Shown here piece after piece: positions 16,715 to 59,722 of a stretch of DNA of 60,000 nucleotides (within the stretch, counting starts at the first letter, position 1; each line of letters opens with the position of its first letter). The stretch is taken from positions 32,676,001 through 32,736,000 of the forward strand of contig CM119371.1 in the NCBI GenBank assembly GCA_051294905.1. The letters run 5' to 3'. Under the pieces are notes generated by a model. The model was not told where the DNA came from. It made no database searches and saw only the letters and a list, made by a program, of their open reading frames with translations. A program made the position numbers and the translations under genes. This DNA comes from Botryllus schlosseri (taxonomy: Eukaryota).

Positions 16715-18757
16715 TAGGACTGGCCAAAATCGAGTACCTGAGTGATTCGATTCTGAATCACGTATTACGCTTCGAGTCGAGTCGAGTATTCAAGTATCAC
16801 TCATTATAACGTCACAACATAATATGATATGTCAAAGTTCATATGCGTACCTCTTAGGCTACCAAAAAGGATATAATGGCTGTTATCCGTCATGTTAAAG
16901 ATACTTCGGTATTTTTTTGACCATACCGATTTCATTGCACTTCTTCACAATGTTGTGGGATGATCATGACTTCGGAAATGTATTATTTCCAGTAACGGTC
17001 GTAGTTTTGTACTATGTCTCGTATGCTGCGTCACGGCTAATCAAAGTTTCAAGGCTTTCTCGGTGGAAAATAGTATTAAAACTATGATTCTCGTTAGTAA
17101 ACTAACTTTCAGTTGTGATGAGAAGCGTATAACTTCAGTACTCGAAAAAATCGTCTTTCACTACTCGACTCGAATCATTAAAATTGATAATCGATTCAGA
17201 TTCGAGTACTCCAGTGGTTCTTAACCTTTTTTCGTCGAGCGCCCCCTTTCAAAAATTATCGTGCTCCAGCGCCCCCCTCAACTTCACATTGTAAGGAATG
17301 TAATAAAGACAATGAGTAAGAGAGAGGGCCGTAACAGCACTTCGTCAACCCCCCTAAAAACGATTGCCTTGCGCACCCATAGCGTGATAAACCGAACTTC
17401 TGAGGGCTTCGCCCCCACGAACCCCATATCGTGATTTTGATGGTCAGCAAAGTTTGTGTGGCCTGGTCGCCCTAGGTACCAAATTTTGCTATAATGCATG
17501 GTAATTACATTTATAAGTCGCTATAAACTTTTTATCCTCTCAGCCCACGTAATCAGATTTACCAGTAGCACTGAGTGAGCTGTTGTATAGGAAAATAAGG
17601 GGCACGTAATTAATAATTAAACATATTCGGGCGTTCCAGCAGGTACAATTATTCGTTACCAGGGCCGTAACAGCACTTCGTCAGCCCCCCTCCCCAAACA
17701 TAAAACGTTGGTCCCGGGCCCCCATCGGGTGATAAACCAAACTTCCGGGGGACTTCGCTCCCAGACCCCCATTAGGCTGTCCGCTATTTGCTGATAGCCT
17801 ATTAGGTATCTACATTGGGTGTACATTTACTGAGGGAGCAATTCTCGCCTAGTCGCGCGAAGTGCGAAAAATTTCACTAATTAATGATTGAATTGGTCAA
17901 TATCAATTGCATGTAAATTGAGATCAATTTTTATCCTCTCTCTGCTCACGTAAACACATTTACCGGTAGAGCTGAGTTAGGTGCAAAGTTCCCTCTAAGC
18001 TGCGCACGTGCGCAGTGCTGACACGGTCTCTGCGCACAGAAAATCTACGTTGCGCACAATAAATCCGGAGTTTTTTAGTCGTTACGCACTGTTGTCCAAG
18101 GGTCAGCGCAGTGAGTTGTTGAGTGTGCGCAGACTCATCAAAACTTAAAGCGAACATTGTGAGGTTTCTTGGAAACTGTAGGGCCCGTTACCAATAATTA
18201 AACATATTCGGGCAGGCAAACCCGTTGGTATGACCTCGTTGCATGATGTTATTTCGTAACCCCCTGTCTGCAATATCAAAAAATATAGAATCGCTCAATC
18301 GGGATATCGCCCAACAGGAATATCCCTGTCGCCCAATCGTCCTAAACTAGAAGACGCACACGATTTCAGATTGGTATTTCTTAACTGACGTATAATTTTT
18401 CTCTGCCAGATGGAATTCGTCTTCTGGGGTTCAGATTTTCAAGACAGGAACATTCGGTGTCAGTCATTTAGGCGCCCATGGACAATTAAACCTATATGTA
18501 TTTTGAAGGCTATATGTAACGAAGTTTTCGGTGTTAATTTGCTCTGAATACTCATTAAGGATATGTCTTATCACCACATCATCTACTGGGAAGTCATTTT
18601 TCTCCAGCGCCCCCCATACTGCCCCCCTGAGCCCAGCGCCCCCCATATCGCCCCCTGAGCGTTTCCGCCCCCCTTCAACATCGCCAGCGCCCCCTGGGGG
18701 GCGCTGGGGGCAAGGTTAAGAACCACTGGAGTACTCGAATCATTGTGCCCAGCCCTA
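16715..18757. mobile_element. hAT-type MITE (tagg..ccta ends), absent from duplication copy 2
   Basis: Ends taggactggcca / tgcccagcccta; TSD ttaatggt/gttatggt; empty gttatggt at ~59083. Confidence 0.75.
17212..18728. mobile_element. hAT-type non-autonomous element nested in 16715-18757
   Basis: 17-bp TIR CAGTGGTTCTTAACCTT; perfect TSD GAGTACTC; gcgccccc subterminal repeats; contains a further ~175-bp MITE at ~17984-18159. Confidence 0.88.
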
Positions 18758-33995: not shown

Positions 33996-34221
33996 TAATT
34001 TATCAGAAATAAAGAAACTGCGGTATCACTTGTATGGAACCGAACGAAATGGTACAGTGTAGAAAGAAAAGAAGTGGAACAGTAACTATCAATAATCCAC
34101 GGTTACATGGGCATAGCGAAAAAAGCACAAATATCACAGTGCGGTGTTGCAAGTCAAGGCTTATGCAGTTAAACGGGCATAGCAAAAGAAACGTATTGAT
34201 GTCACGGTGCTGCAATTAGAG

Positions 34222-34680
34222 GCATAGTAACTATCAATAATGCACGGTTAAAAGGGTATGGCACAAGAAAAGCATTCATGTCACATTGCTGCAAGTACAA
34301 GCATAGTAACTATCAATATTCCACAGGTAAATGGGTATGGCACAAGGAAAGCATTCATGTCACATTGCTGCAAAGCATAGTAACTATCAATAATCCACAG
34401 TTAAATGGGTATGGCACAAGGAAAGCATTCATGTCACATAGCTGCAAGTACAAGCATAGTAACTATCAATAATCCACAGTTAAATGGGTATGGCACAAGG
34501 GGAGCATTCATGTCACATTGCTGCAAGTACAAGCATAGTAACTATCAATAATCCACAGTTAAATGGGTATGGCACAAGGAAAGCATTCATGTCACATTGC
34601 TGCAAGTACAAGCATAGTAACATCAATAATGCGCAGGTAAATGGCACAAAAAAATATTTGCATCACGGTGCTGCAAGCAG
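34222..34680. repeat. 79-bp tandem minisatellite (~6 copies) inside the Harbinger element
   Basis: gcatagtaactatcaataatccacagttaaatgggtatggcacaagg... starts at 34222, 34301, 34375, 34454, 34533, 34612. Confidence 0.92.
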
Positions 34681-37237: not shown

Positions 37238-37384
<147 letters not shown>

Positions 37385-38963
37385 TCAATAGCGCTAGATG
37401 TCAATAGTTTCTAAGTGCTTGGTGCTCAGAATTTCACATCCCTTGGTGGATTTGAGGGGATTCCGGTATTCAGTATTCAGGCATTGTTAATATTTGGATT
37501 TACGGAATCAGTGCGTCGATACCATTTGATTGATGCTAGTTATTATAAATTCTCTGCTGTCCATGATGAATTGCGTTATCGAGGTGAGGCACGACTGGCA
37601 AATAACTTATACTCGTCCAGACGACAGGTGAGGTATGACCGTAACAAAACTTCGCCCATCCTCAAAAACGTTGGTCTTGGCCCCATATGATGATAAACCG
37701 AACATCAGAGGGGCTTCGCCCTCAGACCCCCTCAGGCTGCACGCTGTTTACTGCTACTTGTCAGCTACATTGGAGGCCGTTTACTGAGTCCGCCTTTCTG
37801 ACCTTAACGCCCTAAGCGCGAAAAATGTCTATAATTCATGATTGAATCCGTCAATGTGATCGGGCATTGCATATATATTGCTATCAATTTTTATCCTCTC
37901 TCTGCTCCCATAATCAGAGTTACAGGTAGAGCTGAGTGAGGTGTGTTTGAAAAGGTACGACCCACCACAATAATAATTGAACATCTGCAAGCGTATATCC
38001 GTGATCACGAACGAGATAGCACTTCCTCGGCCTCTCCACAAAATTTGGGTCTTGGGCTCCCCTAGGGTGATAAACCTACCCCAAATCACGTTGCTCGTTG
38101 TCCACGAAATCGGTCAATAAGATCGGGAATTGCATATATATTGCAATCAATTTCTTGTCCCCTCTGCTCACGTAAGGAGATTTACCGGTAGAGCTGACCG
38201 AGGTGTCTTTGAAACTGTATGGCCCGTTGGTATGACTCCGTATCATGATGTGATTTTGTGACGTCCTGCGTACCTGCGGGATGGTATTTGTCTTTTGAGG
38301 TTGGTTGCTAAGAACATTCAGCGGCAGTCATTTAGGTGCCTGTGGACAGTTAAAATATATGTATTTTGTGTATATAACGAAGTTTTCGGTCATCATATGG
38401 GTAGTCCTATTCGACCAAGGTTTTCTCGCTGCCGATCGTTTTGGCACACGTCTTGGTGTCGCATGTTACATGGCCTAAAACACTGGTTCTCAACCTTTTT
38501 TTCTTCGCGGACCGCTTTTGGACAACAACGGACCCGTTCAAAATTAGCTCAATTATCGCTCAACCGTCATCTATCTCGTGCAAATACTGATTGTAGGCTG
38601 GTGATAAACAGCCACAAAATGACTTTTCTTGAAAATAGCATCACAGTATATGTAGAAATTTGATATATTTCTATTAATTAGTAGCTAATTTTGCAGCTGT
38701 ATTTATTGTCTTAAAAATCCGTGACTTCGATTGGATATGAACGAGTGCCAAAAATCCATTGTAATATTAATGCGCAACGCTTTCGACGCCAGGATTTTGG
38801 TGTGTGTTTTTAATAAACATATCACGTCCAGCCTAGTCGTTCATATCTGTCATCTGAACTTGTTATTTAGTGGTTATATCACAGGAGTAAAGGGATTCCT
38901 TGGCGAGAGTAGTTATATAGATCGGTCGTGGTGTGCCATTGTCTCTTATGGGCGGGGTGGTGA

Positions 38964-39176
38964 GGTGCCGCGAAAACTCGTCCTGAACCGGTGACCCTTT
39001 CAGACCCCCCTTCCACCCGACCGGTGCCTTATGAGTATAGGGATCTCTCGACCGGTGCCGCGAAAACTCGTCTTGAACCGGTGACCCTTTTCGGTATAGC
39101 GATCACTCGACCGGTGCCTCGAAACTCGTCTTGAACCGGTGACCCTTTTCGGTATATGCATCTCTCGACCGGTGTT
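38964..39176. repeat. GC-rich terminal sub-repeats (mirror at 52680-52892)
   Basis: Three copies of ggtgcc(g)cgaaa(a)ctcgtc(c/t)tgaaccggtgacccttt plus repeated gaccggtg. Confidence 0.85.
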
Positions 39177-39449
39177 GAATATGTATCAAGTAAATAGTCA
39201 TGTGAATGAATCTTTGTTAATGTGTATATCGTGAAAACTCGTGGTCGTGACTCGCCTTTTTTGCTATAGGCGGTGGCGGTGATTCGCCTGTCGTGTATTC
39301 TTACGAGATCTGTGATGATTCGTCATGTGTTCTTATGGATGCGGTCGTGATTCGCACTTTCAACCATCTCTCGCACGGTGTTGAATAGTCACCAACAATA
39401 ACCGCGCAAACGGAAACGTGGCTTGCAAGAGGATTTACGCAGTGCGTGC

Positions 39450-40215
39450 GACAGACGGCGATTCGAATATCAACAATAGTCGCGTTCGCAAACTAACACT
39501 TCAAAAAGATGTGAAATATTTGTAAAATCCTACGATCGCTCACAAGATACCACTTCCGGCATATCGATCTATCACTCAATACACAACCGAAGTTGAATTG
39601 TAATTGAATGCGTAAATTTATCACCTCGACATCAAAATTCGAAAACAACAACTTGACGCTTTATGTTCTCACTCTAATTTCATGATAAGTGTAATAAGTG
39701 CCGAATAACAGATACATCACCGGCGAGACTTGAATACCAACAAATTGTCACTTATTTCTATTCTAGCCGTAATCCTTTGTGAAGTTAACGCTTATTCAAA
39801 AAGGTGTGGAATAGTTTGCAAAACCCCGCGATCACTGACAAGATAATGTCTCGGACATACCCATCTTTCACGACTTGGTGTCATAACCATACCGATCGCT
39901 CACGCGGTGAAATTTTAGTAATCAGTTTGTCACAGAACTTGATTTCGCTGGTAAGATTTAACAAGTAACGAATAACAGACCGCGGTAACTTGAATAGCGA
40001 CAAATTGTCACTTATTTCCGCTCTAACCCTAATCCTTTGTGAAGAGAACGCTTATTCAAAAGGTTGTGATATAATTTTAAAATCCAACGACCACTCACCG
40101 GATAATGCTTCAGACATATAGCAATCTCTCATACCCGCTCACAAGGTAATATTTCGGTAATAAGTTTGTCACAGAGCCGTCGCAGACGGTGATTCGAAAA
40201 CCAACAATTTGTCAC
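39450..40215. repeat. Imperfect ~260-bp subterminal direct repeats (mirror ~51640-52405)
   Basis: aaattgtcacttatttc...taatcctttgtgaag..aacgcttattcaaaa at ~39742 and ~40002; weaker copies at ~39460 and ~40190. Confidence 0.7.
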
Positions 40216-41419
40216 TCGCCCGCGATCGCTATATGTTTCACGCCTCCAGAATAGTGGCTGACTTTAGTTGCGTGATAAGATCCATGAAAATATTCAATCA
40301 ATGTGTTAGTTTATCAACTTGAAATGAAACTCACTACACAAATCAAGTCGATCCGTATCAGAATGTTTTAAATCGGTACAACTCTAATCCTTTGACAAAT
40401 CCTTAACGCGTTTTTGTTGAATCGAACGTAACCCGAATATTACTGACGCCGACTTTCAGCCGCATCGAATTATTCGCACATTCCGCGCCACTGTTTTCAC
40501 ACTTATAGAATCAATACCAACTATAACTCTACAAGAATCAAGAATCACAAGTACGTGCATTACACAGTTATTGTCTTTATCAACTTGAAATCAAACACTT
40601 AACAAAAACACGAAACTAATCATTTGGCAACTCTAACATTACCCAAAAATTCCAGTATTGTTGATTGAAAATCCTTGAGTCATTATTATCAAAAATGTTA
40701 TAGTACCGCATCAGAATCCATTCGCGGGATGTACTAAAGGTAAATCCAGATAATCCAAAATGAAATATTTGAACTTTGACAAACATGACTACCAACTTTG
40801 ATCCAGCCACATTTCAAGATCATACTTTGAAACAATCCTTGAAACTTACAACTCTATTCACGACTGAGTTTTCCGTTTATCAAATAGAGTTTCAGTAAAT
40901 ACTATCGCGATATTTTAATGTGTTACTACACACAATAGAATCATTCAATGAAATAACACCTGTTGTAAATATTTCTAACTTGACAACCACTTGTGCATAC
41001 CGCGATCGACTTGTGACGCGATGAGTTAAATCGGAATATTTCAATCTATTTGTCGAAACCTTGAACAAACTATCGGGGTATTTTTTGTTGTAATTGAGTG
41101 TACGGAAATAGTATTACGTCTCGACATCTCGCCATCTCACCATATTCAATGAGTCAACCACGAAAACGTTGTCAAGTAAATCCGTTTGTAACTTACCCAA
41201 CCAACTCAAACAGTACCAGTATGAAAAACAGCCAAACATACACGAATCCATACAATCACTAAAACCTAAAGTCCATAACAAGCTTGGTTGTATTCATATC
41301 CCTACACATCTTTTTTTTTATTCAGCTTGAAAAGTCGTTACTATTCTGTAAGATAGAGGAATTACTACGCGGTATATTCTGCAAGACAAACTAATTACTA
41401 CTCGGTATATTTTTTAAGA

Positions 41420-43400
41420 CAAAAGTAATTACTTCTCAGTATCGGCGACTTGAGATTAACATAATATGTTTGAGTATACGAGATTTGAAAGTCCGACCAA
41501 TGTAGTTGAGAATTCATTTCTTACATTCGAACGATGGTGTTATATTCAAAGTTATCATGCTGTGAACATAAGGATTGACACATTGATTTGACATATGAGA
41601 TTTGTAATAGTTGATCATTACTTTATTATTAAATTATTTGTGTTAATTAGACCCGGCGTTGTGGTAAATGTTATGACAGCAACAAACTTTTCAGTACCAA
41701 TGTTATTAACATATTGAGTTGTAAACTATGTGTGTCTAAAATGTTCTCGATTGGAAAATTATTCAGCCTTGGTACAAACCACGCAGCGTATTGTGGATAT
41801 CAGGAAATATTTTACAAATGTAATTGTCTCCACTAACCAAGACTAAAGATGAAACAACAATTTCCTTTGTTGAACAATAACCGGTACAATACTTTATCAT
41901 CGTAATCAGCAGTGAGAATTGAAACACTTTCACACATTATCCGGTGTCAAGATATCACGCTAGGTGAATTGACATACCGCCGCTTGATTAATACCTAATC
42001 CATTCGCACCATTTCACATACTTTGATCATTACAAAAGTAAATTGGGATATGTTTACTAGATGCATTCAATTCAGCTAGAAATGTCTGGTGCGCAACAAT
42101 CGTAATATCAAGGAAGTACTTGCTACACTGTAATTCACTAAACGTGTTTTGTATTGTTGTTCGTTTGTAGTATTGATTGTTTTTGAACCCTCAAATAATA
42201 ATTCCCGACATGAAACCAAGCCGCTGAAAGTCGTTACCATCACAACGAAACAATTTGTACGATGTTTGCCAAACGTATCCTATAGTTAGGTGTACTAGAA
42301 TTATTTGTGTTACGCATACACCGACAAAGAAATCGGGAATTTTTCCGTTGCATTCGCTAAAGTAAATGTCATCACAATACACTGTCACTAAAAGACGTTA
42401 CTCGCATGTAATTGAATCCCTAACAATTAACTAGCTAAATCAAACCCCTAAGAAATTTCAGTCACTCATTGGGTATGAAACAGCGTCGCTTAATCGGTCT
42501 ATATCGTTTTTCTAAAGTTAAATCATATCCATCCAATAGAAAACAATTTTCACTAGCTTGGTAATGAAACCGAAGTCTTCATTCAATATTTTGTTTGTGT
42601 CAAATACTTTACAATAAACACACTGGAGTGGTTGAGCTTTACATCATCAAGCTGTCATCTGTAAATCGAGATCACATCCGACTTGTAACTGTATCGTTTA
42701 CCTAACCGAGTTGTATGCGCAGTTTGATATTTTTGTCATTTAGTGATTGCTGAACATACCAAACGATACACATTCACTTCCGAAATACTGCGTTGATCTC
42801 AATTCCCTTTGTCGTGATAATCGAAGTACATTTGTCTATTCATGACACATGAAAATATTCGATATTCTCATGCTACGAACATACGCAATGATTGGTGACG
42901 CTTTCAAACTGTCTCGATATCACAAGAACTTTATTGTCTGAATGGGTGTTCATGTATCTTAATAATCAAATAGTTCAACACAGAACTAGCACTAACAGAA
43001 ACATCAGAGTTGTTTACACAAAACTTTGTATGTGTACAGTATGCGAATACCATGTGTAAGTCCAGCACAATTGTGGTATCCATCCGAGTTTAGTCAACAC
43101 AAATTTATTACAACGGAGCCACGTAAACTTTCGTGAAAGAAAAGCATACTCACTTCCAGAGGGTTATGTCAACACCATAGCAGTTCCCCAACAACAAAGT
43201 ACATATGTTTCTAGCCACGGTCCTTACATCTTTCACATAGATCAATCTACTTTGCTAACGAAAAGTGCTGAGTCATCACATGATCGCTCTCACAACAAAA
43301 CAGCTAGTAGATATTATCATTCAAAATATTCCTAACCCTTTACACACCAGTGACAAATCATACAACGAATATGCTTTGCGGGTTGAATTGTTGTTCAGTG
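41420..43400 (-). pseudogene. Highly decayed protein-primed family B DNA polymerase remnant (left-arm copy)
   Basis: Mirror of 48450-50430. Confidence 0.6.
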
Positions 43401-44104
43401 TCAAGTCTACCTGTTGAAACGTACATTAAACAGCGCAATCCAATTAAACCCACGAATCTATTTTCATTTCGTCACATACAGAAAAATAAATTTTCTTTCT
43501 CCAACACATACTTGTAACCAATCGCTTTCATTAAACACACAACACCATAAAAGTATTTAATTTCTACAACATAGACATTCCGATGTAGTCAAGAAATATT
43601 TTTATTAATCAAAATCATCGATTGCTGTTCACGGCGTTAGTGTGTGCATGTCATACCTGTGGGCCCCGTATTAAAATGGACACGACACTACTGACTGTAA
43701 GGAGATAGAAGTCTATCACATCGATTTACATGTGGTCTTCGCTACGGTTTCAAAAAAACGAATCATCTCTTTTGCATTGATCTAGACCGAGCAAGTTAGT
43801 TAATGGCCATGATTGTGTTTGTCATATGCGAATGATAGGGTTACTGTCAAATCTACATACAACAATCTTCTGACGATCATAATAGCAATTTCATTTTCCG
43901 CCCCTTCATAATTGTACAACTCGGTAACTACGTTTAACAAGACCAATCACACTACCGGCGTTGAACACAAGATACCTACCCAAGTAAAAATATCATACGG
44001 GTTTGGACAACTGACGTTTACCTGTGTAAAATTATCATTTTCACTTGGAGGTCCACCGTTACCTAACTAAAATACTATTGTCCTTTGGAGATTTATCGTT
44101 TACC

Positions 44105-44605
44105 CAGTGTAACAATCCCCTTTTCACTTGGAAATCTATTTTTGGCCTGAATAACAAACCCCTTTTCACTTGGAAATCTATTTTTGCCCTGGATAACAAA
44201 CCTTTTTCATTTGGAAATATATTTTTTCTCTTGGTAACAAACCTTTTTCACTTGGAAATATATTTTTTCTCTGGGTAACAAACCTTTTTCACTTGGAAAT
44301 ATATTTTTTCTCTTGGTAACAAACCTTTTTCATTGGGAAATATATTTTTTCTCTTGGTAATAAACCTTTTTCACTTAGGAATATATTTTTTCTCTGGTTA
44401 ACAATCCTTTTTCACTTGGAAATATATTTTTTCTCTGGGTAACAAACCTTTTTCACTTGGAAATATATTTTTTCCCCGGGTAACAAACCTTTTTCCCTGA
44501 GCAACAAACCTTTTTCACTTGGAAATATATTTTTTCCCCCAGGTAACAAACCTTTTTCGCTTGGAAATATATTTTTCCCTGGGTTACAAACCTTTTTCAC
44601 TTGGT
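44105..44605. repeat. ~41-bp tandem array, ~13 units (mirror 47251-47751)
   Basis: aacaaacctttttcacttggaaatatattttttctc(t/tg)ggt; cores at 44201, 44242, 44283, 44324, 44365, 44406, 44447, 44488, half-unit 44509, 44551, 44591. Confidence 0.95.
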
Positions 44606-44799
44606 GGTCCGTCGTTTACCTGAGTAAAAATATCATTTTCCTTTGGGGGATCTGGCGTTTACCCAGTGTAACAATACATTTTCTCTTGGTCATCTAGCTT
44701 TTCCTAGAGTAACAAAACCATTTTCATTTTGAAATCTGACAAACACACCTGACAATTTGATATTTTTGTATATTGTTACAACGGATAGCGACAAAATAT

Positions 44800-45995
44800 A
44801 CACCAACAACAACTCCAATACATTTGTGTAATCGCATATTCACTTGTGCTGATGCAACCCATCAATATCATGGGTTACCCGCATGCAATATCCTCTTGCA
44901 CACCGAAATGCATGTTTTGGAAACTTGGACAATAGGCTTCGATAGTTCTGTGATGTCCGGGTTCGTGCTTTGGATTTTCCAGAGTCAAAATGTCTGAATA
45001 AAACACCTCCTCGACGACGGTTGGTATGTGGATAACGGTGTTCGGAAAACGGTTGGATTTATGTCACCCATCGCGATAACAATTCCAGGTCGAGTTTTCC
45101 TCCGGCATGTTTACTATATTGTGTCTTTATTGGTCAATGTATGTCTCGACATTCAGTTTGAAATCGGAAATGATAAAGTATGTAACCGGATCCGGATATC
45201 AACTCTGAATCGATAAACCAATGAACAATATTCAAAGTAAACATGTTACATTCCACGAAAAAATACCATCCAGACATACGTCGCGCTTGTTTGCCCACAA
45301 CAGTATACGCGTAAATGGAGGTGTGTGACATTGCATGCAATGTGTTGGTATACAAACATCGGGGAGTAAGCCTTCGATCCACAGACATTATCATAGCCGG
45401 TAATTTTGATGCAGATCGAATGTCACCCGATAACAATACCAATAAGCCACATTGCAATGACTCTGAGTCCGCGCTATTACATCGATATTTCGACACCGTT
45501 CACTGATTTATTCGATGGTGTTATCGTGTTGTAACATTACAAGATAGTCATGACCCTATCTGTAGACGGACCACCCAGATCAATTGGATACATCGGTCAA
45601 TATCCATCGTGTTGTCGACACCGAAGTTTTCTGCTGAGACTACAGCGTTTGATCCAGGTGAACTATCAAAGTACGGTGCTCGAAATGATTGCGATCAGGC
45701 TTTCAGTCACGATCAATGGATGTCGCTACTCCCACATAACGACTCCGGATAAATATCGTGCAAATGTCGGACTGATATTGTGATCCAAAAAGGTATGTTT
45801 CTGTGGAATGAAGACTGCAATCGTACACCACAATAGAACACTACCTCGTGATTTCACACGCAATCATAAAACACACTTTCGTAAGGGTCTAGCTCGTCCG
45901 GTTTCGAAACGGTCGTCACCACAAGAGATCGGGGTTGGTCTCGTCATATCGGAGCATTTTGAAACGACATCGTCACAAGTCTATTGACGTCGATT
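44800..45995 (+). pseudogene. Decayed Polinton major capsid protein remnant; runs across the arm/spacer junction
   Basis: Ordered fragments in shifting frames resembling Polinton MCP: CDI..GVSLR..MSPDNNTN..ALLHR, YIGQYPS, LSVTINGCRYS..TPD, GMFLWNEDCN, TLPRDFT..HFRKG, SILKRHRHKSIDVD. Recognised by eye only. Confidence 0.55.
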
Positions 45996-46340
45996 CAGTT
46001 GGTCATGTCAATCCGTTTCACAATCCACCATTTTTCAACCCCCCGCACCATAGTGTTACGACACAGACAAGAAGCGTCGGTGGAAATAATAAAACACGGA
46101 AAGCACACTTTGGTGTTATTTGACATGGATTTTACACCCGACGAACCTCACATTCGAGCGATGCATTGGAATTACGCTTGTATTATTGATGTAGAAGGAA
46201 CAGAAATGTATCGATTTATTGGTTTCGTACGTATCCAACAAAAATCTGGGTATATGATTGTGCATGGTTCGCATATTTGACTGTGAACGCTCTATTGGTA
46301 TATGCTGTATAGTTCACTTTCACCGTCGTGCGAATAACCC
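45984..46340 (+). pseudogene. Decayed adenain-like cysteine protease remnant in the spacer
   Basis: MTSIQL.. start, TPDEPH..HW..IIDVEG (cf. NTDPxxxPGxHW..D..G) and frameshifted GICCIVHFHRRA (cf. CGxYCxxFLxxR); lies directly after the MCP-like remnant. Confidence 0.55.
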
Positions 46341-46386
46341 ATGTTACGGCTCGGTGTTTGTGTGTCTGTATGTCACGCTTCAGATT

Positions 46387-49300
46387 GACTCAGAGTCATT
46401 GCAATGTGGCTTATTGGTATTGTTATCGGGTGACATTCGATCTGCATCAAAATTACCGGCTATGATAATGTCTGTGGATCGAAGGCTTACTCCCCGATGT
46501 TTGTATACCAACACATTGCATGCAATGTCACACACCTCCATTTACGCGTATACTGTTGTGGGCAAACAAGCGCGACGTATGTCTGGATGGTATTTTTTCG
46601 TGGAATGTAACATGTTTACTTTGAATATTGTTCATTGGTTTATCGATTCAGAGTTGATATCCGGATCCGGTTACATACTTTATCATTTCCGATTTCAAAC
46701 TGAATGTCGAGACATACATTGACCAATAAAGACACAATATAGTAAACATGCCGGAGGAAAACTCGACCTGGAATTGTTATCGCGATGGGTGACATAAATC
46801 CAACCGTTTTCCGAACACCGTTATCCACATACCAACCGTCGTCGAGGAGGTGTTTTATTCAGACATTTTGACTCTGGAAAATCCAAAGCACGAACCCGGA
46901 CATCACAGAACTATCGAAGCCTATTGTCCAAGTTTCCAAAACATGCATTTCGGTGTGCAAGAGGATATTGCATGCGGGTAACCCATGATATTGATGGGTT
47001 GCATCAGCACAAGTGAATATGCGATTACACAAATGTATTGGAGTTGTTGTTGGTGTATATTTTGTCGCTATCCGTTGTAACAATATACAAAAATATCAAA
47101 TTGTCAGGTGTGTTTGTCAGATTTCAAAATGAAAATGGTTTTGTTACTCTAGGAAAAGCTAGATGACCAAGAGAAAATGTATTGTTACACTGGGTAAACG
47201 CCAGATCCCCCAAAGGAAAATGATATTTTTACTCAGGTAAACGACGGACCACCAAGTGAAAAAGGTTTGTAACCCAGGGAAAAATATATTTCCAAGCGAA
47301 AAAGGTTTGTTACCTGGGGGAAAAAATATATTTCCAAGTGAAAAAGGTTTGTTGCTCAGGGAAAAAGGTTTGTTACCCGGGGAAAAAATATATTTCCAAG
47401 TGAAAAAGGTTTGTTACCCAGAGAAAAAATATATTTCCAAGTGAAAAAGGATTGTTAACCAGAGAAAAAATATATTCCCAAGTGAAAAAGGTTTATTACC
47501 AAGAGAAAAAATATATTTCCCAATGAAAAAGGTTTGTTACCAAGAGAAAAAATATATTTCCAAGTGAAAAAGGTTTGTTACCCAGAGAAAAAATATATTT
47601 CCAAGTGAAAAAGGTTTGTTACCAAGAGAAAAAATATATTTCCAAATGAAAAAGGTTTGTTATCCAGGGCAAAAATAGATTTCCAAGTGAAAAGGGGTTT
47701 GTTATTCAGGCCAAAAATAGATTTCCAAGTGAAAAGGGGATTGTTACACTGGGTAAACGATAAATCTCCAAAGGACAATGGTATTTTAGTTAGGTAACGG
47801 TGGACCTCCAAGTGAAAATGATAATTTTACACAGGTAAACGTCAGTTGTCCAAACCCGTATGATATTTTTACTTGGGTAGGTATCTTGTGTTCAACGCCG
47901 GTAGTGTGATTGGTCTTGTTAAACGTAGTTACCGAGTTGTACAATTATGAAGGGGCGGAAAATGAAATTGCTATTATGATCGTCAGAAGATTGTTGTATG
48001 TAGATTTGACAGTAACCCTATCATTCGCATATGACAAACACAATCATGGCCATTAACTAACTTGCTCGGTCTAGATCAATGCAAAAGAGATGATTCGTTT
48101 TTTTGAAACCGTAGCGAAGACCACATGTAAATCGATGTGATAGACTTCTATCTCCTTACAGTCAGTCGTGTCGTGTCCATTTTAATACGGGGCCCACAGG
48201 TATGACATGCACACACTAACGCCGTGAACAGCAATCGATGATTTTGATTAATAAAAATATTTCTTGACTACATCGGAATGTCTATGTTGTAGAAATTAAA
48301 TACTTTTATGGTGTTGTGTGTTTAATGAAAGCGATTGGTTACAAGTATGTGTTGGAGAAAGAAAATTTATTTTTCTGTATGTGACGAAATGAAAATAGAT
48401 TCGTGGGTTTAATTGGATTGCGCTGTTTAATGTACGTTTCAACAGGTAGACTTGACACTGAACAACAATTCAACCCGCAAAGCATATTCGTTGTATGATT
48501 TGTCACTGGTGTGTAAAGGGTTAGGAATATTTTGAATGATAATATCTACTAGCTGTTTTGTTGTGAGAGCGATCATGTGATGACTCAGCACTTTTCGTTA
48601 GCAAAGTAGATTGATCTATGTGAAAGATGTAAGGACCGTGGCTAGAAACATATGTACTTTGTTGTTGGGGAACTGCTATGGTGTTGACATAACCCTCTGG
48701 AAGTGAGTATGCTTTTCTTTCACGAAAGTTTACGTGGCTCCGTTGTAATAAATTTGTGTTGACTAAACTCGGATGGATACCACAATTGTGCTGGACTTAC
48801 ACATGGTATTCGCATACTGTACACATACAAAGTTTTGTGTAAACAACTCTGATGTTTCTGTTAGTGCTAGTTCTGTGTTGAACTATTTGATTATTAAGAT
48901 ACATGAACACCCATTCAGACAATAAAGTTCTTGTGATATCGAGACAGTTTGAAAGCGTCACCAATCATTGCGTATGTTCGTAGCATGAGAATATCGAATA
49001 TTTTCATGTGTCATGAATAGACAAATGTACTTCGATTATCACGACAAAGGGAATTGAGATCAACGCAGTATTTCGGAAGTGAATGTGTATCGTTTGGTAT
49101 GTTCAGCAATCACTAAATGACAAAAATATCAAACTGCGCATACAACTCGGTTAGGTAAACGATACAGTTACAAGTCGGATGTGATCTCGATTTACAGATG
49201 ACAGCTTGATGATGTAAAGCTCAACCACTCCAGTGTGTTTATTGTAAAGTATTTGACACAAACAAAATATTGAATGAAGACTTCGGTTTCATTACCAAGC

Positions 49301-52300
49301 TAGTGAAAATTGTTTTCTATTGGATGGATATGATTTAACTTTAGAAAAACGATATAGACCGATTAAGCGACGCTGTTTCATACCCAATGAGTGACTGAAA
49401 TTTCTTAGGGGTTTGATTTAGCTAGTTAATTGTTAGGGATTCAATTACATGCGAGTAACGTCTTTTAGTGACAGTGTATTGTGATGACATTTACTTTAGC
49501 GAATGCAACGGAAAAATTCCCGATTTCTTTGTCGATGTATGCGTAACACAAATAATTCTAGTACACCTAACTATAGGATACGTTTGGCAAACATCGTACA
49601 AATTGTTTCGTTGTGATGGTAACGACTTTCAGCGGCTTGGTTTCATGTCGGGAATTATTATTTGAGGGTTCAAAAACAATCAATACTACAAACGAACAAC
49701 AATACAAAACACGTTTAGTGAATTACAGTGTAGCAAGTACTTCCTTGATATTACGATTGTTGCGCACCAGACATTTCTAGCTGAATTGAATGCATCTAGT
49801 AAACATATCCCAATTTACTTTTGTAATGATCAAAGTATGTGAAATGGTGCGAATGGATTAGGTATTAATCAAGCGGCGGTATGTCAATTCACCTAGCGTG
49901 ATATCTTGACACCGGATAATGTGTGAAAGTGTTTCAATTCTCACTGCTGATTACGATGATAAAGTATTGTACCGGTTATTGTTCAACAAAGGAAATTGTT
50001 GTTTCATCTTTAGTCTTGGTTAGTGGAGACAATTACATTTGTAAAATATTTCCTGATATCCACAATACGCTGCGTGGTTTGTACCAAGGCTGAATAATTT
50101 TCCAATCGAGAACATTTTAGACACACATAGTTTACAACTCAATATGTTAATAACATTGGTACTGAAAAGTTTGTTGCTGTCATAACATTTACCACAACGC
50201 CGGGTCTAATTAACACAAATAATTTAATAATAAAGTAATGATCAACTATTACAAATCTCATATGTCAAATCAATGTGTCAATCCTTATGTTCACAGCATG
50301 ATAACTTTGAATATAACACCATCGTTCGAATGTAAGAAATGAATTCTCAACTACATTGGTCGGACATTCAAATCTCGTATACTCAAACATATTATGTTAA
50401 TCTCAAGTCGCCGATACTGAGAAGTAATTACTTTTGTCTTAAAAAATATACCGAGTAGTAATTAGTTTGTCTTGCAGAATATACCGCGTAGTAATTCCTC
50501 TATCTTACAGAATAGTAACGACTTTTCAAGCTGAATAAAAAAAAAGATGTGTAGGGATATGAATACAACCAAGCTTGTTATGGACTTTAGGTTTTAGTGA
50601 TTGTATGGATTCGTGTATGTTTGGCTGTTTTTCATACTGGTACTGTTTGAGTTGGTTGGGTAAGTTACAAACGGATTTACTTGACAACGTTTTCGTGGTT
50701 GACTCATTGAATATGGTGAGATGGCGAGATGTCGAGACGTAATACTATTTCCGTACACTCAATTACAACAAAAAATACCCCGATAGTTTGTTCAAGGTTT
50801 CGACAAATAGATTGAAATATTCCGATTTAACTCATCGCGTCACAAGTCGATCGCGGTATGCACAAGTGGTTGTCAAGTTAGAAATATTTACAACAGGTGT
50901 TATTTCATTGAATGATTCTATTGTGTGTAGTAACACATTAAAATATCGCGATAGTATTTACTGAAACTCTATTTGATAAACGGAAAACTCAGTCGTGAAT
51001 AGAGTTGTAAGTTTCAAGGATTGTTTCAAAGTATGATCTTGAAATGTGGCTGGATCAAAGTTGGTAGTCATGTTTGTCAAAGTTCAAATATTTCATTTTG
51101 GATTATCTGGATTTACCTTTAGTACATCCCGCGAATGGATTCTGATGCGGTACTATAACATTTTTGATAATAATGACTCAAGGATTTTCAATCAACAATA
51201 CTGGAATTTTTGGGTAATGTTAGAGTTGCCAAATGATTAGTTTCGTGTTTTTGTTAAGTGTTTGATTTCAAGTTGATAAAGACAATAACTGTGTAATGCA
51301 CGTACTTGTGATTCTTGATTCTTGTAGAGTTATAGTTGGTATTGATTCTATAAGTGTGAAAACAGTGGCGCGGAATGTGCGAATAATTCGATGCGGCTGA
51401 AAGTCGGCGTCAGTAATATTCGGGTTACGTTCGATTCAACAAAAACGCGTTAAGGATTTGTCAAAGGATTAGAGTTGTACCGATTTAAAACATTCTGATA
51501 CGGATCGACTTGATTTGTGTAGTGAGTTTCATTTCAAGTTGATAAACTAACACATTGATTGAATATTTTCATGGATCTTATCACGCAACTAAAGTCAGCC
51601 ACTATTCTGGAGGCGTGAAACATATAGCGATCGCGGGCGAGTGACAAATTGTTGGTTTTCGAATCACCGTCTGCGACGGCTCTGTGACAAACTTATTACC
51701 GAAATATTACCTTGTGAGCGGGTATGAGAGATTGCTATATGTCTGAAGCATTATCCGGTGAGTGGTCGTTGGATTTTAAAATTATATCACAACCTTTTGA
51801 ATAAGCGTTCTCTTCACAAAGGATTAGGGTTAGAGCGGAAATAAGTGACAATTTGTCGCTATTCAAGTTACCGCGGTCTGTTATTCGTTACTTGTTAAAT
51901 CTTACCAGCGAAATCAAGTTCTGTGACAAACTGATTACTAAAATTTCACCGCGTGAGCGATCGGTATGGTTATGACACCAAGTCGTGAAAGATGGGTATG
52001 TCCGAGACATTATCTTGTCAGTGATCGCGGGGTTTTGCAAACTATTCCACACCTTTTTGAATAAGCGTTAACTTCACAAAGGATTACGGCTAGAATAGAA
52101 ATAAGTGACAATTTGTTGGTATTCAAGTCTCGCCGGTGATGTATCTGTTATTCGGCACTTATTACACTTATCATGAAATTAGAGTGAGAACATAAAGCGT
52201 CAAGTTGTTGTTTTCGAATTTTGATGTCGAGGTGATAAATTTACGCATTCAATTACAATTCAACTTCGGTTGTGTATTGAGTGATAGATCGATATGCCGG

Positions 52301-52948
52301 AAGTGGTATCTTGTGAGCGATCGTAGGATTTTACAAATATTTCACATCTTTTTGAAGTGTTAGTTTGCGAACGCGACTATTGTTGATATTCGAATCGCCG
52401 TCTGTCGCACGCACTGCGTAAATCCTCTTGCAAGCCACGTTTCCGTTTGCGCGGTTATTGTTGGTGACTATTCAACACCGTGCGAGAGATGGTTGAAAGT
52501 GCGAATCACGACCGCATCCATAAGAACACATGACGAATCATCACAGATCTCGTAAGAATACACGACAGGCGAATCACCGCCACCGCCTATAGCAAAAAAG
52601 GCGAGTCACGACCACGAGTTTTCACGATATACACATTAACAAAGATTCATTCACATGACTATTTACTTGATACATATTCAACACCGGTCGAGAGATGCAT
52701 ATACCGAAAAGGGTCACCGGTTCAAGACGAGTTTCGAGGCACCGGTCGAGTGATCGCTATACCGAAAAGGGTCACCGGTTCAAGACGAGTTTTCGCGGCA
52801 CCGGTCGAGAGATCCCTATACTCATAAGGCACCGGTCGGGTGGAAGGGGGGTCTGAAAGGGTCACCGGTTCAGGACGAGTTTTCGCGGCACCTCACCACC
52901 CCGCCCATAAGAGACAATGGCACACCACGACCGATCTATATAACTACT
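46387..52948 (-). repeat. Right arm (6,562 bp) of giant inverted repeat
   Basis: Reverse complement of 38908-45469; begins gactcagagtcattgcaat at 46387. Confidence 0.98.
48450..50430 (+). pseudogene. Highly decayed protein-primed family B DNA polymerase remnant (right-arm copy)
   Basis: Colinear motif ghosts across frames: YAFLS..KFVL..GWIPQL..FV*TTLMFL (~48705, ExoII region), YKSDV (~49170, ExoIII), CKVFDTN..GFI, FLLDGYD (~49320), DFFV(G/D)VC, IGYVWQTSY (~49575, cf. YVDFTSLYP), VAVITFTT (~50175), NEF..G..N..Y (~50340). Many stops and deletions. Confidence 0.6.
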
Positions 52949-54049
52949 GGCGAGGTTTCAATTCCTTCATTGGGACAGATTAGGAAAAGAAATGAGGAAG
53001 TTATATTTCAAACGACTGTTTGCTAATTTGATGAGACTTTTCGACAACTCCAAATCCAGAATGTTACCTCTAACATTTCATTTTTTCACAGACCCCAACA
53101 AAACATTTGTAAACAGTAGGATGTGTCATCTCAGACGACCATTTTAATGATGTGAGTCCTAAATTTTTAGCAATTATGAAGCGAAACCGTCATGCCTTTC
53201 CTAACATAAAAAACAGGTTATCATTCACGTTACAAATTTAGAGGTTTCGCGGACCCCCTGAAAACGCTTCGTTGACTCCCGGATGAGGAATGCCACTGAT
53301 CTAAACCTTCATATGTCTTGGTGCACCGTGGTGCGGTAATGGCCAACGCCGATGTGCCCATTTCTATAAATCTTGCGTATTTTTTCTTGGGGGAAGAGTA
53401 CCCCAAAATTAAGATATTTGGCAACTGGAAATCGCGAAAATCAAAATTGTGTTCTGTGCATCCTTCAATAATTTGAAATCTTTTTATATCTGAAAACTCC
53501 TCCAATTATCAATGACTTTAGACAAACACACATTGAGCAAGCACGTGCATTGCAGTTTTGCCCCAAAGCCACCAATGGCATGTCGAATTTTACTATGTCT
53601 TAAATTAGAACTTCTATGACTACGTTTCTGTGACTTCACTCCACGCTCAGATCAGATAAGTGTTCTTGAGATGGTCTATCCACAATGTCTGAATCTCAGA
53701 AACTTCGGATATTCAATTCTAAACCTGCTAACAGAACACAGATCTGTAAAAATATCAGTAATAATTACCCACGTTACAAGAACTGCTGCAGAGACTTTAT
53801 TAAGCGTCTAACCGTCGAAGCGGCTAGACGCGAAAGACACAGGAGCAACACAAGACATCACTACTATAACAGGTAGCGGTATAGAGCACGACTGCCACAT
53901 ATCGACTGCAATTGTACATGTGAATATTCCTATGCATTTTATGAAACGTCCATGAATTTACGTCAGGAAATATTGGAGAACAAAATCGACTAATTGGACG
54001 GAGATGAAAAAAAAACGTTTTTCAGATACTTGAATGTATTACATGTTAA

Positions 54050-55023
54050 TGAATTCACCATTGGAGTACCCCTTCGCAGTATATGTTGTCCCCCATGCAT
54101 TTCATCCATGATTGTCGCTGCCAGTATGCACATTCATATGTCGCTGGATGTGATTCTTCTGAGTAAACGCCCTCTCACATAAATCACATTTATGATTTTT
54201 GATGCCAGCATGTAATACATATGAAGCTTTAGGTGACTATTCTGAGAAAATGCTTTTCCACACACATCACATTCATGATTTTTGTCACCAGCCTGCATAT
54301 ACATATAGATCTTGAGCTCACGCTTTCCAAAAATTGCTTTAACACATACATCACATTCTCACTTTGTGATGCCTGCGTGTATATCCATATGAGGCTTGAG
54401 TCGACACTTATGACTGAATGCTTTTCCACATATATCGCATTCATGACTTTTGATGCATCGACGTTTTTTTTCATATGTAGCATGAGGCTATTCTTGTGAG
54501 TGAATTCTACCCCACATACTTCAAATTTATGTTTTTTGATGACAGCATATATCTTCATGTGAAGCCGGAGGTTATTCTTATGGGCGAATAACTGGCCACA
54601 TATATCACATTTAACACTTTTTCTGCAATCATGCGTATCCATACAACGACTGAGGTCAATTTTCTGAGTAAATGCTTTCCCACATACATCACATTGATGA
54701 TTTTTGATGCCATCATGCATATCCACATGACGACTGAGGTCATCCTTCCGAGTAAATGCCTTTCCACATAAATCAGATTCATGATTTTTAATGCCTGAAT
54801 GCATCTCCATATGAAGCTTTAGCACATTCTTCATATTGAATGGCTTACCACAAACATCACATTCGTGCTTTTAACACCAGCATGCATATCCATATGATAC
54901 TTGAGGACATGTTTATGAGTAAATGTTTTCCCATATACATCACATTCATGGTTTTTGTTGCCAGCATGCATATTCATATGAAACTTGAGGTCACCCTCTC
55001 GAGTAAATGCTCTCCCACATACA
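54050..55023 (-). pseudogene. Decayed continuation of the zinc-finger array of paralogue 2
   Basis: About ten further finger units in shifting frames, e.g. CDVCGRAFTREGDLKFHMNMH, HQCDVCGKAFTQKIDLSRC, with lost Cys/His ligands. Confidence 0.85.
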
Positions 55024-56508
55024 TCACATATCCATATTGTGTTTTTTAACACCAGCATGCATATCCATATGATACTTGAGGACATGTTTATGAGTAAATG
55101 TTTTCCCACATACATCACATTTTTGTCTTTTGTTGCCATTGTGCATATTCATATGTCGCCTGAGGACACCCTTCTCAGAAAATGCTTTCCCACATACATC
55201 ACATTCATGATTTTTGATGCCAGCATGCATATCAATATGACGTTTGATGTGACCATACTGAGTAAATACTTTTCCACATATATCACATTTATGTCTTTTG
55301 ATGCCAGTGTGCATATTCATATGTCGCGTGAAGACACCCTTCTCAGAAAATGCTTTCCCACATACATAACATTCATGATTTTTGATGCCAGCGTGCATGT
55401 CCATATGAAGCTTGAGGGTAGTCTTCCACGCGAATGCTTTATCACATACATGGCATTTATGATTTTGGATGCCAGTATGCATATTCATATGCCGCTTGAG
55501 GTAACGCATCCTAGGAAATGCTTTCCCACATACAGTACACCCATGATTTTCAATGCCACAATGGACATCCATATGACTCTTGAGGCCGCCCTTCGTGGTA
55601 AATGCTTTCCCGCATACATCACACCCATGATTTTTGATGCCAGCATGCATATTCATATGATGCTTGAGGTCACCCTTCCGAGTAAATGCTTTTCCACATA
55701 CATCACATCCGTGATCTTTGATACCAGCATGCATATCCATATGACGTTTGATGTGACCATAATGAGTAAATGCTTTTCCACATACATCACATTCATGATT
55801 TTTGATGTCAGCGTGCATGTCCATATGAAGCTTGAGGTTAGTCTTCCACACGAATGCTTTATCACATACATGGCATTTATGATTTTGGATGCCAGTATGC
55901 ATATTCATATGCAGCTTGAGGTAACCCATCCTAGTAAATGCTTTCCCACATACAGTACACCAATGATTTTCAATGCCACAATGCACATTCATATGACTCT
56001 TGAGGCCGCCCTTCGTGGTAAATGCTTTCCCGCATACACCGCATGTATGATTTTGGATGCCAGTATGAATATTCATATGCCGCTTGAGGTATCCCATCCT
56101 AGTAAATGCTTTCCCACATACAGTACACCCATGATTTTCAATGCCAAAATGCACATTCATATGACTCTTGAGGACGCCCTTCTTGGTAAATGCTTTCCCG
56201 CATACATCACATTCATGATTTCTGATGCTAGCATGCATATCCATATGACCCTTGAGGTGCGCCTTCCCAGTAAATGCTTTCTCACATACTTCACATTTCT
56301 GATTTTTGATGCCATCACGAATGTCTATATGACATCTGAGGTTATTCTTTAGAGTGAATGCTCTGCCACATACATCATTTATATGATTTTTCATGGGAAC
56401 ACGCACGTGCGTATGAAGCTTGTCAATTTTCTGAGAAGACTCTTTCCCGGAGATATCGTTTGGGCGATCTTTCAAGCCCTGATCAACAGTTGATTTTTCA
56501 GATTCCAT
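55024..56508 (-). CDS. Tandem C2H2 zinc-finger protein, 494 aa (15 intact fingers + 1 degenerate), paralogue 2; truncated by a frameshift
   Basis: 28-aa periodic CxxC-x12-HxxxH with H(A/T)GIKNHEC linkers; short N-terminus with no recognisable KRAB/ZAD/SCAN domain. Confidence 0.85.
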   Translation of the reverse strand: MESEKSTVDQGLKDRPNDISGKESSQKIDKLHTHVRVPMKNHINDVCGRAFTLKNNLRCHIDIRDGIKNQKCEVCEKAFTGKAHLKGHMDMHASIRNHECDVCGKAFTKKGVLKSHMNVHFGIENHGCTVCGKAFTRMGYLKRHMNIHTGIQNHTCGVCGKAFTTKGGLKSHMNVHCGIENHWCTVCGKAFTRMGYLKLHMNMHTGIQNHKCHVCDKAFVWKTNLKLHMDMHADIKNHECDVCGKAFTHYGHIKRHMDMHAGIKDHGCDVCGKAFTRKGDLKHHMNMHAGIKNHGCDVCGKAFTTKGGLKSHMDVHCGIENHGCTVCGKAFPRMRYLKRHMNMHTGIQNHKCHVCDKAFAWKTTLKLHMDMHAGIKNHECYVCGKAFSEKGVFTRHMNMHTGIKRHKCDICGKVFTQYGHIKRHIDMHAGIKNHECDVCGKAFSEKGVLRRHMNMHNGNKRQKCDVCGKTFTHKHVLKYHMDMHAGVKKHNMDM

Positions 56509-57688
56509 GTCGGTCTTTTTGTTGAAATGATCGTAGGTGTTCCACAGAACACTTTTATTTATTACACTGAAGAAAATATATATGATTCAAAGTTCAACGT
56601 GTTTAACATACATTTTTAACAGATTGGCCTAGCACATGAAACTAACTCTCCCTGATACTCATCAGGGGAAATCGTCAGCAACCGAAAGAGAATTGGAAAG
56701 AACAATGTATCACCAAATATGAGGTCACATGCATGAACTATCAAGGAATTGGGACGAAAAGACCGCTTAAGCTCAATGTACGGTTTTTAGATAAAAGACG
56801 AACTCCTTTTGCTGGCACTAACTAGCTTGGCGTATTTTGACGAAAGTCGACTCATAGGCACACATATTAATGCGTGACCGGCCTCTCGCGACAAGGGACG
56901 AATTCGAGGAAAAAGCAGTATGATACCAATTGCCTAATTGCATATGATCTCACAAACATTAAAGAATTGGCATGTCAAAAGAACGGAGTTTAAATTTTGA
57001 ACCTCAATGTCCCGCGTGTACGCTGGTGCAGACAATCACCACAACAGAGTCAATTCAACTACTGAAAAAGGCTCAATACGGTTACCCTATTTTCGTAGAC
57101 AAAAATCTGCACGCTCACTATATATTGTCAATATGACGTCACACCAGCAATGCTTTGCCTAACCTTTACATTCCGGAGTCTATTTCTTAACACAGTGTAG
57201 TGAATTCATTAGGACTAGGCTATTGGTCACCTCTTGTCAGAGCCCCAAAACGATCACCATATGGGCCGAACTCGATACGCCAAATGTAGAGAATGATCAC
57301 TAGCACCAGTATAACCACCCAATTTCACTCTGGTAACCATATAACGAACAGTTCGGAGATATTGACACTTCATTTCTTAATGTTTTCGAATATACGGAGA
57401 GAAGTGCACTCGCGTATCTTTGTTACCTACTGACCATCTACAATCCTATATGGGTGTTACGTTCTCAGTCGCAGAAACGCTTGCCAGTTGCAAGAGTCAC
57501 AACATCAATCTACGGCGAAACTTTTCTTCATCAGCCGCCATCCTGTGGAACAAAACCGTTTTATTTACACGAGCGTTCGAACTACAGTAGTGTTTATTCT
57601 GCATTACAACTATATGCACTAGGGGTGGCCTGGACCCCTGAAAGGTTCGGGTTCGTGTGAACACGCACCTTTTTGATAGGTTTTGTGT

Positions 57689-59517
57689 CAGTGCTTCTCA
57701 ACCGGTGTGCCGCGGCACACTAGTGTGCCATTTACGTCTCGCAAGTGTGCCGCGAGCGATTCCTTTGAAATTCTGAAATGAGGCGCAGATCAATTCTAGG
57801 ATATAGCAAACGATCAACAATCTAAATCGAGCTTGTTGTGAAGTTCGTATATTTGATGAATCTAAAATTATATTATGCCCGCAATACGTTTCCCCAGCGT
57901 ACTCGCATTACCCGACATATCGCGTGCCTTGAAGGCAGAGGTTAGTTTTGCACAATACGTAGTTTGACCGCAGAGAAGTGCAAACACGGCGGCGCCTGTA
58001 TGACGATACAGTAATCCTCATTGCAGACTTGGACAACTAGATAATTCTAGTTGTCTAATTCCACTAAATTATAGCGAAATGCCAGCAATCTAATTCTAAT
58101 CTAGTTTGCAAAAGCCGAAAATTTTTTAGTTGTTCAAGTATAAGCTTGGGCAACTAGATAATTGTAGTTGACTAATCTCACTAAATTAGAGCGAAATACC
58201 GGTATTCTAATTCTAATCTAATTTAGAAAGGCTGAAAATTTTCTAGTTGTCCAAGTCTGCCTCATTGTCTCCCCAATCACCAACGAGAAATGAACGTCTT
58301 AAGAAGTGACGTTGGCGCTTCAAAATTCAAATTACAAACATAACAATACACATTTCGATGCTGACACTTCGGGTAAAATGTAGGTTTGCAGCACAACGTT
58401 CTGTTTCCGGCGACGAATATGACAATCGAGAAGTATGGTTGATCCAGTCATATCAGTAACCGAACTGTCTGGCCTCGGTTACCAAAACGTTTAAAGTTTC
58501 GACTAGATCGCAGCAGGTCAGTTATGTGGTAGCGGAGGTGCCGGCTAAAAATCCAAAGCCTCACACGGAAGCGGAAAAAGTTATTCTTCGGCTTGCACGG
58601 GAATTGTGAAAAAATGTTTGCGACCAAACTGCAGATTATTTGAAAACGATTCCCATGTAAAATAATCCGTTTCGTAGACTATTTGATTTGGGTCATGTCC
58701 AGAGATATTTGCATATTTGGTAGATATCTTTGACCACTTAAACAAGACAAATTCCAGTACCCAAGCGAGAATGAAATCTCTTATCTGCAACAGAGAAAAA
58801 CTTAGAGAATTTCAACAGAAATTCAAAGTGTGGTCATTCCGAGCAGGATCTTATTGTAGCACGTTCTCCAATTTCTCCGAACGAATAAAATCGAAATCGT
58901 GCCGTTAGTTGTTCAGCATCTCAAATGTTTGCATGCATCAATAAGCACTTATTTTCCAACAATATAGTAACAGAAAACGATGCAAGGGTAAAACGCTCAT
59001 TTTTGCCGCAGGAAACCCATTTTACTTAAAATCTCAAAAATGGGGAAGAGCTGATTGACATATGTAATGAAGTAGACATGAAGTTATGGTCCAATGAAAT
59101 GTAATAAAATCCTGACGGATTATCATTACCTTGGAGAAAAGGCAACTGTGATTTTATTTCAATTTTCCAAGTCGTACCTGCGCGAGACGGGATATCCGTT
59201 CTGGTCAACATACAAACCAAAAAAAGAATGAAGTTACTGACTTTTGAAGCAGAGACAAGCGTGAGCGTAGCAATGTAAAATGTGTGTCCAGACATTGAAA
59301 GGATATGCGCTAGAAGTCAAGCGCAAATTTCGCACTGACTTTGTTTGTGATGAAATTCAATATATTGTTTTGTTTTCGATAGAACTGTTCAATTTAATAC
59401 AAAAACTTGATTGACTACAGAGGTGGTCGCATTAGTTAAAGTTACTACTGAAGTGGGTGCTGCTAAGTATTCTAGTAGTTTGCAGGTGCCGTAAGCCAAA
59501 AAAGTTCAGAACCACTG
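57689..59517 (+). mobile_element. Degenerate Buster-like hAT element (paralogue of 15023-19149)
   Basis: Same ends; VDIFDHLNKTNSSTQARMK remnant. Confidence 0.7.
58024..58259. mobile_element. hAT-type MITE present only in duplication copy 2
   Basis: 18-bp TIR CAGACTTGGACAACTAGA; perfect TSD CCTCATTG; built from two ~118-bp units; empty site at ~15892. Confidence 0.92.
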
Positions 59518-59722
59518 TGCCGGTGTGCCGCGTAAAGTTTTTAATTTCCAAAGAGTGCCGCGAGTGCCACGAGTGCAATGTGTACTATATGCAACACAGA
59601 CTTGTATAAATTACTTAAAAAAAACGCAACTACAATAACAACTAGAACTACTCAGAACCAAAACCAGACCTAGAACTCATGACCAAGGAAAATTATTACA
59701 CAACAGAATACAGAGCGAATGT

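Follow-up and report, generated by a model that had tools for sequence, protein, structure and literature searches.

Positions 41420 to 46340 of a 60,000-bp window of Botryllus schlosseri DNA (GenBank assembly GCA_051294905.1, contig CM119371.1, positions 32,676,001 to 32,736,000 of the forward strand), which is the whole stretch analysed here, raise the question whether an apparently recent insertion can carry genes that decayed long before it inserted. A sequence-only reading had seen in this part eroded remnants of the protein-primed DNA polymerase B (pPolB), capsid and protease genes of a Polinton and had proposed a non-autonomous lineage served by helper Polinton proteins. The stretch is enclosed by a palindromic mobile element of 14,041 bp (38908-52948), and our analysis indicates that this element is probably a helper-dependent Polinton satellite, spread by the polymerase and the integrase of intact Polintons. 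This interpretation is based on its ends, its target-site duplication (TSD), its palindromic structure, its high copy number and subfamilies, the equalisation of its arms and one conserved open reading frame (ORF).

The left arm (38908-45469, plus strand) and the right arm (46387-52948, minus strand), which is its inverted copy, are each 6,562 bp long and make up 93% of the element. They differ by five substitutions (positions 41490, 42321, 43689, 44076 and 44377) and by no insertion or deletion. The unique spacer of 917 bp between them (45470-46386) has no second match anywhere in the window and would form the loop if one strand folded back. The left terminus reads AGTAGT and the right one ACTACT, and the 6-bp TSD GGCGAG is present on both flanks (38902-38907 and 52949-52954, plus strand). 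The near-identical arms, intact termini and TSD of the sequence-only reading were thereby confirmed. As background, Kapitonov and Jurka reportedly described non-autonomous Polinton derivatives in 2006, which are said to carry Polinton ends without the enzymes. A survey of vertebrate Mavericks gives (AGT)2//(ACT)2 as the commonest end motif, beside (AG)3//(CT)3, and a 6-bp TSD as typical, with terminal inverted repeats (TIRs) of 46-1,447 bp and lengths of 12.7-24.6 kb in intact elements, and describes degraded copies as having mostly lost their TIRs (PMC8097293). Autonomous Polintons/Mavericks are thus like the present element in termini, TSD length and size range, whereas they differ from it in their much shorter TIRs and in their core genes: pPolB, integrase, ATPase, protease and the major and minor capsid proteins were all tested for and are undetectable here. 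A non-autonomous derivative with Polinton ends and no enzymes probably corresponds to this element, which has reached many copies without enzymes of its own.

The search for gene remnants in the arms was based on 151 Polinton-like reference loci (32 viral and 119 metagenomic), retrieved with short motifs, and on 120 further pPolBs; the gene labels of the reference clusters were assigned by reading their sequences, and the host's own Polinton proteins are not among them. None of the six whole frames gave a Pfam match at E<=1, and the 39 shorter pieces gave a single one, a sub-threshold match to YokU (E=0.019). The best tblastn scores on the arm were 27.7 bits with 449 ORFs and 28.0 bits with 1,058 ORFs, versus 28.0 and 28.3 bits on the reversed arm, while hmmsearch --max with sets of 14, 7 and 1 profiles reached a top arm domain score of 1.6 bits. 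With a frameshift-aware aligner and softened profiles, the two motif types of pPolB, the two capsid groups, penton, protease, integrase and ATPase all stayed within the range of shuffled sequences. Homology did not rise above shuffle level at 41420-44070, where the pPolB and capsid ruins had been proposed: 15-19 of 20 shuffles equalled or exceeded the score of the pPolB profiles at 41300-44070 (minus strand), and 8-15 of 40 did so for the capsid profiles at 42900-44070 (plus strand). Integrase and packaging ATPase, which had also escaped the sequence-only reading, were undetectable in the element by Pfam, hmmsearch and frameshift-aware profile searches against the references. The same holds for the capsid proteins and the protease of Polintons, neither of which was found by profile searches of the element; there is no ORF for pPolB, and two pPolB profiles scored at shuffle level outside a minisatellite. 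The terminal 18-mer had no match in viral contigs.

These negative results are set against positive controls in the frameshift-aware search, in which a pPolB from another group scored 103.6 bits, a pPolB split by a frameshift 95.4, a capsid protein from another group 89.7 and two proteases 43.6 and 47.3 bits, versus shuffle maxima of about 13-23 bits; one penton control was weak (19.3 bits). The longest open frame in the arm has 111 amino acids (aa), compared with a mean of 115 aa over 200 shuffles. The period-3 signal amounts to 0.80-1.05 in the arms and 1.07 in the flanking DNA, whereas Polinton genes reach 1.40-2.04 and broken ones 1.48-1.74. Judged by codon periodicity, the length of open frames and the profile searches, the arms are non-coding.

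In the strongest alternative, each arm is one half of an ancient Polinton, with pPolB and capsid genes that persist as ruins too eroded for the references, and the mode of spread is the same. Motif-like strings can indeed be discerned by eye in the arm translations, the host's own Polinton is outside the reference set, and faint scores were obtained. The penton profile at 40189-40055 (minus strand) outscored 40 of 40 shuffles for this region, which was chosen once the score had been seen, and 29 of 30 when the arm from 38908 to 44000 was searched. Furthermore, tblastn with the 120 pPolBs gave five matches on the arm plus spacer (best 29.8 bits, E=0.003, at 45657-45746) and none on the reversed arm, and shuffles attained the score of a pPolB profile at 45109-44915 in 1 of 20 and in 4 of 20 cases. 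These scores are, however, scattered and non-collinear, stem from many tests, and none of them lies at the position of the pPolB or capsid strings. Remote and even broken control genes were recovered far above the shuffle maxima, and neither codon periodicity nor open frames set the arms apart from flanks or shuffles. The arms therefore seem to be without demonstrable pPolB or capsid ruins, and the claim of such ruins, for which the frameshift-aware translated profile alignment returned no significant hit, did not hold up against the present references. Ruins more eroded than the controls are compatible with the data, because the host's own Polinton is absent from the references, and we regard this alternative as unlikely. 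Apart from this, a pPolB score of 19.6 bits (shuffle maximum 17.2, n=16, arm plus spacer) was discarded: it crosses a 41-bp minisatellite (44075-44628, plus strand), the lysine-rich minus-strand reading of which produces a composition-driven score, and it fell to shuffle level once the minisatellite was removed. The segment at 40189-40055 (minus strand) faintly resembles the first part of the minor capsid proteins of Polintons and lies within old internal duplications (39500-40118, plus strand; spacing about 260-300 bp, about 75% alike).

How widely the element has spread was estimated from sequencing runs, of which 20 (10 studies, two organism labels) share part of the stretch. Four runs were compared with 37500-46386, an 8.9-kb segment that comprises one arm, the spacer and the left flank including a separate host repeat. 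On this segment, 227,589 records were obtained from one run (X1) and 22,172 from another sample of another study (X5), with all 30 bins covered. In X1, arm and spacer reached summed depths of about 1-6 x 10^5, versus 37.8 for a flank contig. A 147-nt contig in X5 that is identical to 39510-39656 has a depth of 7,021, whereas four others among the listed contigs have 43-60; X5 contigs diverged by 10-12% have depths of 3,624 and 5,288. In order of magnitude, the family comprises hundreds to low thousands of copies in several subfamilies and in more than one individual; the high copy number is read from run depth, and no other insertion site was seen directly. The idea of a single fixed copy, considered along with the sequence-only reading as an alternative, is refuted by such a very high-copy family. 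The proposed non-autonomous lineage itself stands in so far as the element is multi-copy, gene-less and bounded by Polinton-type ends and was likely moved in trans; the ancient gene ruins offered as its evidence fall away. The depth of the spacer is about 0.3-0.4 of the arm depth in three contig runs, which is near the value of 0.5 for a family with two arms and one spacer.

Among the best 40 of 800 rows of sequence variants, 23 sites lie in the arm. At 10 of these, at least 99% of the X1 depth carries a different letter, and the right arm mirrors all 23, versus five mismatches between the arms. Since ten family-rare variants are present in both arms, the arms were equalised after this sublineage had split off. 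The sublineage is perhaps about 2% away from its nearest X5 relatives. In an alternative account, the insertion is older, its arms were kept alike by gene conversion on the chromosome, and the family spread earlier. In its favour, the share of the sampled 31-mers that recurs in runs of other samples is only 0.31-0.54, and six of the ten rare variants were not seen in X5; this absence is weak evidence because contigs drop rare variants. The TSD and both termini are intact, no indel separates the arms across 6.5 kb, minisatellite included, and the observed/expected ratio of CpG in the arm (1.19) shows no depletion, all of which argues against great age and makes this account improbable. In organism B, 0.44-0.46 of the words are present, and run X8 covers all bins, the host flank repeat included, as would be seen in a relative or a mixed sample.

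The protease-like stretch of the sequence-only reading proved to be an intact ORF of 91 aa in the spacer (46005-46280, plus strand). Relatives fall into six clusters with 92, 68, 64, 60, 62 and 45-47% identity and lengths of 90-98 aa; they align from a common start, have no more than one internal gap and share 28 invariant columns. Amino acid exchanges are more conservative than expected for neutral DNA at P<0.01 in four of nine comparisons, with P=0.0004 in the most distant one. Judging from this conservation, the ORF is a selected gene of the element lineage and not a ruin. Relatives P0001-P0008 and P0131-P0133 come for the most part from contigs of 0.6-1.2 kb, with two on longer ones (2.0 and 4.0 kb); short-read assembly of a palindrome would yield contigs of about this size if the spacer alone were assembled. 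No relatives were found in IMG/VR and JGI metagenomes, a sequence search of the PDB gave no match, and a search of 1.84 billion representatives retrieved only P0002 and two repeat proteins, both of which were dismissed as spurious on visual inspection.

A protease assignment had been tried for this ORF with a score of 15.4 versus a shuffle maximum of 15.3, reached by 4-5 of 40 shuffles, and was then ruled out by profile and residue tests. Five family members scored -0.1 to -1.4 bits with the protease profile, versus 48-74 bits for 11 Polinton proteases of other groups, and the profile-profile comparison gave a probability of 0.09% for an adenain-type protease. The catalytic triad of adenain-type proteases includes His and Cys; in the ORF family, no conserved catalytic pair was found, there being no invariant Cys and the His that precedes an invariant Trp being replaced in P0132. 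Among the matches listed by the fold searches there was no cysteine-protease fold, although this alone does not exclude one. The predicted structure of the distant relative P0132 has eight strands, with a predicted local distance difference test score (pLDDT) of 75.4 and a predicted template modelling score (pTM) of 0.66. Its comparison to small heat-shock/CS/AMIN sandwiches was weak (best Z 5.0, root-mean-square deviation 4.4 over 75 residues), Foldseek gave no match for the spacer protein fold at E<=0.001, and a structural comparison with the Atlas yielded template modelling (TM) scores of 0.55-0.57 to AMIN clusters and feature matches below 0.9. The protein is accordingly predicted to be a small all-beta sandwich of no known family, the likeness being insufficient for assigning a family or function. 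Our best guess, a tentative one, would be a small adaptor acting on the replication or capsid machinery of the helper. With regard to expression, no RNA run is among the listed runs that share words with the stretch; one raw RNA run, of which about 6% was used, gave 675 reads on the element, mostly from diverged copies, on both strands and with about 1x coverage over the ORF, and neither supports expression of the ORF nor speaks against it.

In the mechanism that we propose for the helper-dependent satellite, the helper pPolB would initiate at either end and displace one strand. The displaced strand would then fold back along the 6.5-kb arms, with the 917-nt spacer as loop, by which a duplex origin would be remade, and repair or re-synthesis within the fold-back would restore the identity of the arms; in adenovirus panhandles, the arms are made identical again in such a fold-back. 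Finally, the helper integrase would insert the product with a 6-bp TSD. The arms would thus serve as origin and filler DNA rather than as a readable fossil genome. These enzymatic steps are inferred from the gene content of Polintons (PMC6431247) and from work on adenovirus panhandles. The suggestion of the sequence-only reading that doubling brought the element near the length of complete Polintons, perhaps under selection for a packageable size, would be compatible with the data, as its 14.0 kb falls within the range of intact vertebrate Mavericks (12.7-24.6 kb). Along the arm (38908-45469), the strand starting at the terminus shows a GC skew of -0.116, an excess of C over G that is mirrored in the other arm, and the CpG observed/expected ratio is 1.44 in the outer 2.5 kb; this pattern could be a trace of strand-asymmetric replication or of old transcription.

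Several points weigh against a helper-dependent satellite. The arm DNA has no match to the 151 Polinton-like reference loci, and summed contig depth does not equal copy number. The 23 arm sites come from the best-supported rows, beyond which there are 760 more, and the equalisation of the arms fits in-place gene conversion as well as repair at replication. As to the ORF, five of the nine selection comparisons are non-significant, the nine are non-independent, and retrieval from protein databases can return intact ORFs only; in addition, the protein of the window itself is poorly folded in prediction (pLDDT 40.6).

Related systems share parts of this organisation. Foldback elements such as FB of Drosophila and Galileo have long arms with internal tandem arrays and are moved by cut-and-paste transposases, with TSDs that are longer (7 or more bp). 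The present element resembles them in its long TIRs and internal tandem repeats, namely a 58-bp subterminal array (38964-39174, plus strand; 2.4 copies at 39035-39174 and a partial copy at 38964-39000), a 33-bp array of 2.8 copies (41342-41433, plus strand) and the minisatellite, and differs in its ends and TSD length. A foldback-type transposon served by an unrelated transposase, with Polinton-like ends by chance, is very unlikely in view of the exact six-base Maverick motif at both ends and the TSD of 6 bp. Assemblers can generate near-perfect long inverted repeats, and no read spanning the element was seen, yet an artefactual palindrome is hardly credible given differing flanks with a matching TSD, five arm differences and a spacer depth well below the arm depth in three runs. 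Adenoviruses pass through panhandle replication intermediates, and snap-back defective genomes have been described for adeno-associated virus (AAV; PMC8235507). Both are alike with the satellite proposed here in that one end is doubled, self-complementary and helper-dependent, whereas they arise transiently during infection and the present element becomes integrated and is maintained in the germline as a family with subfamilies. Butterfly polintons were described with gene-bearing TIRs of about 2 kb, together with mobile polinton-related elements that lack polB (10.1101/2025.02.07.637071). They share with this element expanded TIRs and continued mobility without polB; in contrast, they hold capsid and protease genes in their TIRs and carry transposon cargo, while the arms here are non-coding and three times longer. 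For a hybrid element in turtles, non-autonomous spread with damaged coding sequence was proposed (10.1101/2021.11.26.470093). No description of wholly palindromic Polinton dependants was found in searches of the open-access literature, so that a prior description elsewhere is possible.

The element lies between two paralogous C2H2 zinc-finger loci (12600-19200 and 54000-59600) with 84-bp arrays and minus-strand open frames at 12623-13435 and 55024-56586; the surrounding blocks are 84-95% alike and represent a segmental duplication whose copies are about 42 kb apart. The separate, very high-copy host repeat occupies 37800-38690, immediately to the left of the insertion, and has partial copies at 17505-17983. 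Further left are a 79-bp tandem array of 6.1 copies (34166-34644) and a perfect (GA)71 tract (37241-37382).

The replication of Polintons and the formation of particles by animal Polintons are open questions that rest mostly on gene content. A large and almost wholly palindromic family of dependants with re-equalised arms is the expected residue of a fold-back replication intermediate, and its size distribution together with the loop gene makes both questions testable from sequence and extrachromosomal DNA. As a caution, motif-like strings that the eye picks out in arms of this kind do not amount to evidence for fossil genes. More speculatively, the family might represent a true class of polintovirus satellites, that is, genome-sized hairpin replicons whose palindrome would be remade in each helper-driven round, which would be held near helper length for packaging into its capsid and which would keep one small protein of their own for exploiting the helper or holding it in check. 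If this were true, they would be the equivalent, in the animal germline, of phage satellites and of snap-back defective genomes and would give a direct readout of a Polinton replication intermediate that has never been observed.

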